DNA of 58,194 bases, filler included, from Jimgerdemannia flammicorona (GCA_003990765.1; 2 parts of 2 records of this genome joined end to end with filler, not necessarily neighbours in it), one strand, 5' to 3'. Shown: positions 29,261 through 31,825, numbered from the whole stretch's first letter. Made by a program: numbers and translations. The notes: generated from the letters alone by a model not told the origin.

Positions 29261-31825
29261 TTTCGAAATTCAGCTCAGTCAATGTCGTGTTTTGTTTTAA
29301 AGCCTCAGCTAGGGCGTGTGCACCCTCGCGGCTAATATTATTCTCTTAAAATAAACAGCGGATAAGCAATCATGTACAGATCGTGAGCTTAATTCCATCA
29401 TGCAGCTGGACTAATACTTCGCAGTTCATATATATACCTTTGAGATTCAACTTTTTCAATGTCGCGTTCTGCTTCAGAGATCCGGCTAGGGCACGTGCAC
29501 CTCCGTTGTCAATGCTATTCTCTTTAAAAGAACAGGGGATGAACATATGCACAGATCGTGTGAATGATTCCATCGCGCCGCTGCACACAATTTTTCACAT
29601 ACCGAGAAGATATAGCTTAGTTAAGGTCACGTTCTTCTTCAGAGACTCGGCTAGGGCGCGTGCCCCTTCTAGGCCAATGCCATTGCCTTAAAGTGAACAG
29701 GGGATGAACATGCAAAGATTGTAAGTTTGCTTTAATTACTTATGCTGCACAGCTCTGACCTACTTTGGAGATTCAGCTCAGTCAATGTAGCGTTCTGCTT
29801 CAGAAACTCGGCTAGGGCGAGTGTACCCTCGTCGCCGATTTTATTCCCTTAGAATGAACAGGGGATGAGCAAACACACACAGAACGTTAGTTTGATTCAT
29901 CGAAATTCAGCTCGCGTTTTGCTTCAGAGACTCGACTATGGCACGTGCCCCTTCATTGTCAATCCCATTCCAAAGTGAATAGGAGTGGAGCATGGAAAGA
30001 GGGTGAACTTGATTCGATCACGCAGTTACACACAAATGTTTCACACAATTCCGACATACCAGCGAGATTCAGCTCAGTCAAGGTTGCATTCTGCTTCAGA
30101 GACTCAGCCATGGCGCATGCTCCCTCGTGGCCAATGTTATTCACTTTAAAGTGAACAGGGAATGAATGAACACGCACAGATTGTGAGCTTATTTCCATCA
30201 CGCAGCTGTATACAATGCTTTACATAGTTCTGACATACAGAGGAGATTCAATTTGGTCAATGCCGTGTTTTGTTTTAGAGCTTCAGCAAGGGCGCGTGTC
30301 CCTTTGTGGTCGATGCTGTTTTCTGAATACGAACAGGGAACGAGCGAGTATGAGCTTGGTTCCATCACGCAGTCACGCACCACCCTTTGCATAGTTCTGA
30401 CATACTGGAAAGATTCAGGTCGGTCAATATCGTGTTCTGTTTCAGAAGATCGGCTAGGGCGCGTGCCCCCTCGTGGCCGATGCTGTTATCTGAAGATGAA
30501 CGGGGATAAACAAACACGCGGAAATTATAAACTTGATTCCGTCACGCAGCTGCAAACAATGAATTACATAGTTCTGACATATATACCTTCAAGATTCAGT
30601 TTGGTCAAAGTCGTGTTCTGCTTTAGAGACTCGGCTAGGGATCTAGTCCCTTGATCACCGATGCCCTTTCCTAAAAATGAACAGGGGCAAACAAACGTAG
30701 ATCGTGAGCTCGTTTCCATCGCGCAGCTGTAATCAATGGTGAAACATAGTTCTGACGTACCTTTGAGATCCAGCTCGGTCAAGGTTGTATTCTGCTTTAG
30801 ATATTCAGCTAGGGTACTGGCCCTATTGCCATCGACATCATTAGCTGGAAATTAAGAGGGAATGAGATGCCATGCGCAGATCGTGAGCTCGGTTCCATCA
30901 CATAGCTGTAAATAATGTTTAATACAGTTCTGATATACCTTTTATATTCAGTTCGGTTAAGGTTGTGTTCTGCTTTAGATGCTCATCTAGGGCATTGGCC
31001 CTTTCGACACCGACATCGTTAGCTAAGATCCAAAGGGGGCGAGAAAACATGTCCTGATTGTGAGCTCGGTTCCATTACACCGCAGCAAGAAAGGTTAACA
31101 CAGTTCTGACATACTCGAATTATAAAACTCGTTCAAATTCACGTCCTGCTGCAGCGACTCGACCAGAGCGCGGGCCAACAGAATGCTGATGTTTTTGCCT
31201 AAATTTGAACCGGGAATGAGCGCAATCTTTATCTCGCAAACCATAATTGACGTAATTCTGATTTACCAGTGAGATTGACTTTGTTTAAGGTTGTGTTCTG
31301 CTTTAGAAATTCAACGAGAACCCGTGCCGCCCCATCGTCAATGCCTTTCGCGAAAAATAAACAGGGATAAATGAACACGAACAAATATTGCGCTTGATTT
31401 TATCTCAAAGCGAGGGGAAATAATTCATCAAGTTCCGACATACCGGGGAGATCCAACTTTGGAGCAACAACTGGGACAGCGGTCGGAACTACGGTGGAGG
31501 GCGCCACAATAATATGGATATGCCTTTTGGTGGGCGGTAAGGAGAAAATATTGGAGATATTTTCCGTGGGAAACAGCTTTTGGACATTCTCATTGCCGTT
31601 GTTTTCGAGTTTGAGGTCTTTGAGCAAGGTAGGATTTTCGACGGCCATGTCTACTAGGTAAAGTGTCAACTCGTCGGCCGCAATGTGGTTGAAGTACGGC
31701 GCCTTCTTCTCCTTGATTTTGTCCTTGAGATGGCTGATGAGCTTCGACTTTCGGATATCGACGGGAAAGGCGCACTCGACCGAGTCGCCGTAAACTAAAC
31801 ACATGATTGTAATGGTATTACCCAT
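29261..31825 (-). CDS. Crinkler (CRN) N-terminal domain fused to RI-type LRR array; multi-exon, 3' end runs into the gap
   Basis: Exon 1 (31825-31444) encodes MGNTITIMCLVYGD..AFPVDI..LKDKIKEK..ADELTLYLV..HIIVAP. It is followed by 84-bp exons at 31267-31350, 31115-31198, 30939-31022, 30761-30844, 30587-30670, 30406-30489, 30239-30322, 30060-30143, 29764-29847, 29603-29686, 29438-29521 and 29261-29344. Each encodes a repeat like xNxIGxEGARALAESLKQNxTLTELNL. Confidence 0.9.

Follow-up and report, generated by a model that had tools for sequence, protein, structure and literature searches.

The stretch of DNA analyzed here, below called the window, comprises 58,194 nt from Jimgerdemannia flammicorona (GCA_003990765.1), in which two contigs are joined by filler. 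On its minus strand, at 29261-31825, where the original prediction had placed the feature, lies a header-repeat gene that we consider probably to be a single, intron-rich unit: an exon for a Crinkler-type (CRN) ubiquitin-like (Ubl) header would be joined by splicing, with no exon in between, to a solenoid containing 12 or more leucine-rich repeats (LRRs) of the ribonuclease inhibitor (RI)/NLRC type, the array being old and conserved and the product a binder or adaptor. Joining the header exon and 12 LRR exons computationally at their coordinates gave an open frame of 461 codons, uninterrupted by in-frame stops. All 12 LRR exons are multiples of 3 in length and flanked by AG and GT, and both boundaries of each live LRR exon are in phase 1, as is the donor of the header exon. 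From these features of the genomic sequence we infer that header and array are spliced together.

The first exon (31444-31825, minus strand, 382 nt, equal to 127 codons plus 1 base) begins with an ATG at 31825 that aligns with the starts of the closest relatives. Its donor, GTATGT, interrupts a Gly codon after the first base, which puts the following intron in phase 1. The product of the exon matches the Pfam family Crinkler (PF20147) at profile positions 1-105 of 106 with an E-value of 1.6e-23 and 83.9 bits, the cut-off being 24.6; this Pfam check of the header agrees with the CRN N-terminal exon that had been proposed. An AlphaFold2 model of the header, calculated with 149 relatives, reached a mean predicted local distance difference test score (pLDDT) of 91.2 and shows a beta-grasp topology with the order beta-beta-alpha-beta...beta. 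When this model was compared to the PDB with Foldseek, the matches were mostly ubiquitin, NEDD8, ISG15 and Ubl domains with a target template modelling (TM) score of 0.65-0.77. The header motifs LTLYLV and HIHIIVAP are the counterparts of LxLWKV and HxHIIVxxP in the consensus of the relatives; HVLVxxP is the name used for the motif in oomycetes. The header is a complete Crinkler N-terminal domain with a ubiquitin-like fold.

After the header 13 LRR-like anchors follow, representing 12 spliceable exons and one dead unit. The original prediction had counted 13 tandem units, twelve of them with exons of exactly 84 bp. The 13 anchors are present, but one of the units is no longer an exon, and among the spliceable exons only 11 have exactly 84 nt. 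The remaining one is U01 (31267-31344, given as 31344-31267 in the direction of the gene), which has 78 nt and 26 residues: it lacks the first two repeat residues while its AG/GT flanks and the frame are kept. From there the exons, all on the minus strand and 84 nt long, are U02 (31115-31198), which is the most divergent unit with 44-60% identity to the other units, U03 (30939-31022) and U04 (30761-30844), which form the closest pair with 81% identity, U05 (30587-30670), U06 (30406-30489), U07 (30239-30322), U08 (30060-30143), U09 (29764-29847), U10 (29603-29686), U11 (29438-29521) and U12 (29261-29344), the last exon before the contig end.

The repeat table shows tandem repeats of 28-29 residues with a consensus of the type LxxLxLxxNxIgdeGaxaLaeaLkqN, which places them in the RI-like class (RNI superfamily, LRR_6). 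Aligned to LRR_6-bearing proteins in which the repeats are contiguous, the conceptual product shows no gap over 330 (P0154), 328 (P0184) and 297 (P0200) residues, across all exon junctions. Since these alignments to contiguous LRR proteins are gapless, each predicted junction adds exactly one 28-residue repeat. Together with the table of phase-1 exon boundaries, the alignments over 297-330 residues uphold the claim of one 28-residue RI-like LRR per same-phase exon. The first residues of the repeats had been described as strongly variable, which is correct for positions 1 and 3, whereas position 2 is conserved: it is Asn in 9 of the 10 units compared and Lys in one. Furthermore, one of the repeat starts had been given as VNN; the codon split by the intron is TTG and this repeat starts with LNN.

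The 12 complete introns are 68-212 nt long. Only 4 of them are multiples of 3, and reading through would lead to an in-frame stop in 11 of the 12. Intron 0, which separates the header exon from U01 (31345-31443, minus strand, 99 nt, phase 1), would stop the frame after 14 codons. That the introns are homologous to each other, as had been noticed before, is confirmed by 59 of 66 intron pairs, whose scores exceed the highest value seen in 330 shuffled controls. Intron 0 exceeds the shuffle maximum in 9 of its 11 comparisons with other introns. Blocks shared by the introns are found at both ends, with GTATGTCAGAAC on the 5' side, and in the central part, and the identity in aligned columns is about equal in introns (65%) and exons (64%). 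Judged by these alignments the array introns are homologous by descent, and intron 0 belongs to the same intron family. An intron-borne RNA, for example a small nucleolar RNA, was considered as cause of the intron conservation and rejected: Rfam gave no match at E <= 1 on either strand of the array, and RNAalifold found no consensus pair in 11 introns.

The homology of intron 0 to the array introns is the reason to propose that recombination within introns of compatible phase probably brought header and array together. It also bears on the reading that two separate entities are present here, a stand-alone header gene consisting of exon 1 and 14 intron codons (141 residues) and an LRR array that is part of no gene or a relic without promoter; the fusion would then be fictitious. 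Such an arrangement would fit the header-only proteins of about 110-140 aa that are common among the relatives. However, exon 1 ends exactly at a GTATGT donor whose phase is that of the array, it is separated from the first LRR exon by a 99-nt intron that is a member of the array's own family, and the array exons show coding constraint. In addition, the short relatives may themselves be incomplete. Among 15 metagenome loci inspected, 5 (L002, L003, L005, L006 and L022, with L005 and L006 near-duplicates) carry a donor-like GT[AG]NGT hexamer in phase 1 just after the end of the HIHIIV..P domain and before the first in-frame stop. These hexamers fit a header that is usually an exon of its own, and many short header proteins in the databases may be first exons read into the intron. 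We therefore regard two separate entities as quite unlikely; part of their support comes from the survey of header relatives described below.

The closest headers were found in J. flammicorona itself, in P0001 (56% identity) and P0002 (52%). Both continue into a MYND zinc-finger module, and the models consist of the header, a coiled region and the MYND module in this order. A third J. flammicorona protein, P0153, is composed of this same MYND module followed by about 9 LRRs similar to those of the array (LRR_6 with an E-value of 2.4e-30); compared to the conceptual product it shows 53.8% identity over 260 residues. Residues 1-206 of P0153 match residues 184-385 of P0002 at 70%. P0002 ends one residue past the point where P0153 runs into its LRRs, and the start Met of P0153 is internal in P0002. 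From these sequences, the public gene models of P0153 and/or P0002 may be incomplete, and J. flammicorona may contain a header-MYND-LRR gene. When considering header, MYND and LRR, all three pairwise combinations are present in this lineage, represented by the window gene, by P0001/P0002 and by P0153. Further header relatives belong to Paraglomus, Diversispora and Galerina. A feature search of the ESM Atlas returned header-only Crinkler clusters exclusively, which are commonest in Mucoromycota.

The array breaks off in the intron after U12. The truncated intron (29157-29260, minus strand) ends in a T-run at the contig end (29157), and since the array stops inside an intron at this point the C-terminus of the gene lies beyond the contig end. 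What had been taken for a gap next to the array is not an ordinary one: 29056-29155 is an artificial linker without strand, N44-TTAATTAATTAA-N44, which joins the two contigs and is located outside the gene. This spacer is palindromic and provides a stop in each of the six frames. The DNA left of the linker therefore belongs to another, unrelated contig, and adjacency across the spacer should not be assumed. A unit-copy search of this left-hand contig found no LRR units, and a search for MYND modules found none there or anywhere else in the window. Shortly before the spacer, at 28741-28991 near its end, the left-hand contig carries tandem repeats of 33 nt in 5.2 copies (with an alternative period of 99 nt) and of 23 nt in 3 copies with 97% matches.

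Several observations weigh against a single header-LRR gene encoding a binder. The truncation by the contig end leaves the stop codon and any C-terminal domain outside the visible sequence, and the gene model was built from genomic sequence. When Pfam was run on the unspliced pieces, LRR_6 gave partial matches in 5 of 8; the best of these single-exon pieces reached 21.3 bits and thus stayed below the cut-off of 23.4. The remaining points concern the rarity of the pairing. At E <= 0.001 we obtained 1348 header relatives, and the Pfam scan covered 149 of the best 150 plus the exon of the window. Crinkler was found in 150 of these 150 headers, a kinase in 4, MYND in 2 and nSTAND3 in 2, and many of the proteins are short; an LRR family was found in 0 of the 149 relatives scanned, i.e. 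within the best 150 of 1348. Likewise, among the 120 relatives of P0153 listed of 742, PF20147 occurs only in P0001 and P0002 and never together with LRR_6, and no J. flammicorona model among the matches listed carries header and LRRs together. A metagenome scan with the header alignment yielded 25 loci, in 8 of which the sequence downstream of the header is shorter than about 800 nt; LRR, MYND or kinase matches at E <= 1e-3 were present in 0 of these 25 loci, most of which are short. Relatives also include annotated proteins that consist of the header only, such as the 119-aa P0007 of J. flammicorona. No header-LRR protein was found in these sets that would confirm the architecture independently, a negative result that also speaks for a separate header gene. 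Finally, the non-enzymatic adaptor or binder product was inferred from the fold class only.

The dead unit is a pseudo-exon at about 29900-29969 (minus strand) within the 212-nt intron. Its acceptor is GG instead of AG, an internal deletion leads to an in-frame TGA, and the donor together with the 5' half of its own intron is deleted. One unit has been lost by decay while the reading frame of the gene was kept. Such decay could be part of a wider process. A once functional header-LRR gene, or a header-MYND-LRR gene minus its MYND exons, may have lost expression and now be decaying as a pseudogene; the strongly divergent U02 (44-60% identity to the other units), the broken frame of an adjoining kinase-like gene, the abundance of retroelements in the region and the lack of a MYND module in the window would all agree with this. 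The constraint seen between units reflects only the past of the array and is compatible with recent death. Against a pseudogene, 12 exons have kept their frame, length and splice sites, and the 461 codons that they form with the header contain no in-frame stop. We consider a pseudogene unlikely.

The units themselves are old. Exon identity between units ranges from 44 to 81%, with the neighbors U03 and U04 as the closest pair, and the raw divergence at fourfold sites is 162/357 = 0.45. The longest exact run common to any two exon-plus-intron units is 23 nt. Taken together, identities of 44-81%, a fourfold divergence of 0.45 and shared runs of at most 23 nt indicate that there were no recent duplications or conversion tracts. 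For the units U03-U12 divergence is highest at the third codon position (0.47), followed by the first (0.32) and the second (0.19), and the pooled ratio of nonsynonymous to synonymous divergence (dN/dS) between units is 0.24 (45 unit pairs). These sequence comparisons indicate that the LRR units are under purifying selection. All unit copies are located at 29212-31307 in one orientation; no copy was found elsewhere in the window and none on the opposite strand. The most variable residues of the repeat are positions 28, 15, 6, 10 and 3, with a proportion of nonsynonymous differences (pN) of 0.50-0.70, plus position 1 with its split codon. In an RI-type LRR we assign positions 28, 1, 3 and 6 to the binding face, past the beta-strand, and positions 10 and 15 to the helix on the outside. 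The variability pattern along the repeat is ordinary for LRRs and no demonstration of diversifying selection. Antisense to the array, on the plus strand, stop-free frames are found at 30187-30654 (155 codons) and 29350-29691 (113 codons), each extending across several units; these long open frames are probably a by-product of the repeat.

The original prediction saw in the array a diversifiable system, and one part of this view stands: since the exons are symmetric with phase 1 at both ends, any unit could be gained, lost or skipped without frameshift, and one unit has indeed been lost by decay. The stronger form, an actively diversifying cassette receptor or effector whose units are gained, lost, converted or alternatively spliced for many binding specificities as proposed for brown-algal ROCO proteins, appears very unlikely to us. 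It could draw on the nearly equal length of the symmetric exons, any subset of which splices in frame, and on the most variable residues (28, 3 and 6 as well as 1), which lie to either side of the exon junction within the predicted binding face. The inactivated unit within an intron also has a parallel in Ectocarpus, according to PMC3341825. However, the age of the units leaves no recent duplication or conversion visible, the between-unit dN/dS is low, the opposite strand and the rest of the window contain no further unit, and the same exon design occurs in human NOD genes, as given in PMC2747839. With old units under purifying selection, active cassette diversification is not supported, nor is the view of the array as a currently diversifiable system.

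According to the single-gene reading that we prefer, the array would have arisen from old tandem duplications of an exon-plus-intron unit, followed by purifying selection and the decay of one unit. The LRR horseshoe would hold a protein ligand via the variable positions 28, 1, 3 and 6, which follow the beta-strand, and the header would supply the trafficking or recruitment role of CRN headers, whatever that is. As the visible product contains no enzymatic domain, a role as binder or adaptor is suggested.

Apart from the header-LRR gene, a kinase-like gene is located at 33513-34379 on the plus strand, divergent from it. It was detected by tblastn with residues 12-282, the kinase domain, of P0158 from Endogone sp., a kinase plus RI-like-LRR protein (27% identity, E-value of 4e-9). 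The frame of the kinase-like gene is interrupted at about 33740 and again near 34090-34105, within the HRDLHPG-NVVL motif, and its two open reading frame (ORF) pieces are without Pfam match; the gene is either decayed or carries assembly errors. Retroelement genes are found at 10415-12887 on the minus strand, comprising reverse transcriptase-RNase H (E-value 2.9e-34), a dUTPase domain (2.5e-24) and an integrase zinc-binding domain. A dUTPase inside an element of the long terminal repeat type is worth noting. A fragment of RVT_1 is located at 26712-27152 on the plus strand. Visual inspection had suggested a DIRS-like element at 37.4-41.4 kb, but its 2 ORFs gave 0 Pfam families and thus lent the suggestion no support. 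An open frame of 370 codons at 51984-53096 (minus strand) has no Pfam family at E <= 0.001.

In the discussion of CRN proteins the header is paired with a toxin, and a header on a purely binding LRR solenoid would widen the uses of the CRN header. The header-MYND and MYND-LRR relatives in Endogonales point in the same direction. With an exon of its own and a phase-1 boundary, the header would be a clean case of exon-level domain shuffling in fungi. A bolder idea, to which we give little credence, is a family in early-diverging, plant-associated Mucoromycota in which the Crinkler header is shuffled at phase-1 introns onto protein-binding modules (LRR, MYND) in place of toxins, the array of the present gene serving, by skipping of exons or turnover of units, to vary the recognition surface; if true, this would be a fungal counterpart of the exon-shuffled LRR receptors of brown algae and a non-toxic, target-binding class of CRN proteins. 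The value of the present case is limited by the incomplete gene, by a model drawn from sequence only and by the lack of any sign of ongoing diversification. No CRN-LRR fusion is reported in the titles and abstract openings of the matches listed for crinkler and LRR, which is no proof of its being unpublished, and the matches listed for crinkler and Endogonales do not contain the word "crinkler".

Among known systems the Crinkler effectors, such as CRN8 of Phytophthora and RiCRN1 of Rhizophagus, share with the window gene the PF20147 header with its ubiquitin-like fold and the arrangement of a header with an exchangeable C-terminal module. That CRN headers usually carry enzymatic toxin domains, as stated in the original prediction, agrees with PMC5289972, according to which most C-termini known to date are toxin domains with enzymatic activity, for example nucleases and kinases. 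Unlike these toxin or enzyme C-termini, the visible part of the present gene is an RI-type LRR solenoid in 12 small exons; the visible gene holds no C-terminal toxin or enzymatic module, only the 12 LRR exons, its distal part being beyond the contig end. Moreover, the organism is a Mucoromycota fungus with its nearest relatives among mycorrhizal Endogonales and not among pathogens. P0001, P0002 and P0153 of J. flammicorona resemble the window gene in providing the nearest headers and a similar array of 28-residue LRRs. They differ in the MYND module, which precedes the LRRs or follows the header, whereas in the window the header is separated by 99 nt from the first LRR exon.

The Ectocarpus ROCO genes are similar in having one LRR per symmetric exon and an inactivated exon in an intron. 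PMC3341825 describes one-LRR-per-exon shuffling in these genes, with exons of 72 nt and inactivated LRR exons in introns, in agreement with what the original prediction had stated on single-LRR exon shuffling in brown algae. The same paper also mentions intact LRR exons on the non-coding strand, which indicate very recent shuffling. The present array differs in its exon length of 84 nt (28 residues) compared to 72 nt (24 residues) and in its LRR class. In contrast to the recent shuffling on both strands in Ectocarpus, its units are old (maximum identity 81%) and confined to one strand. A ROC-COR GTPase module is not found in the visible gene; in ROCO proteins it is located C-terminal to the LRRs, a position that here lies beyond the contig end.

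With regard to NLR/STAND receptors, the difference lies between header and LRRs, where a NACHT, NB-ARC or other STAND NTPase is absent and only a 99-nt intron with a stop is located. The vertebrate NOD/NLRC genes are alike in their 28-residue RI-type repeats encoded by a single exon each; for human NOD genes one 28-residue LRR per 84-nt exon is described in PMC2747839. Judged from the repeat motif given in that paper, a NOD exon begins roughly three codons earlier within the repeat than an exon of the array does. The layout known from vertebrate NOD genes, in which each 84-nt exon encodes one LRR, thus also occurs in a fungus, with the intron elsewhere in the repeat. The pairing of such an array with a Crinkler header is unusual.

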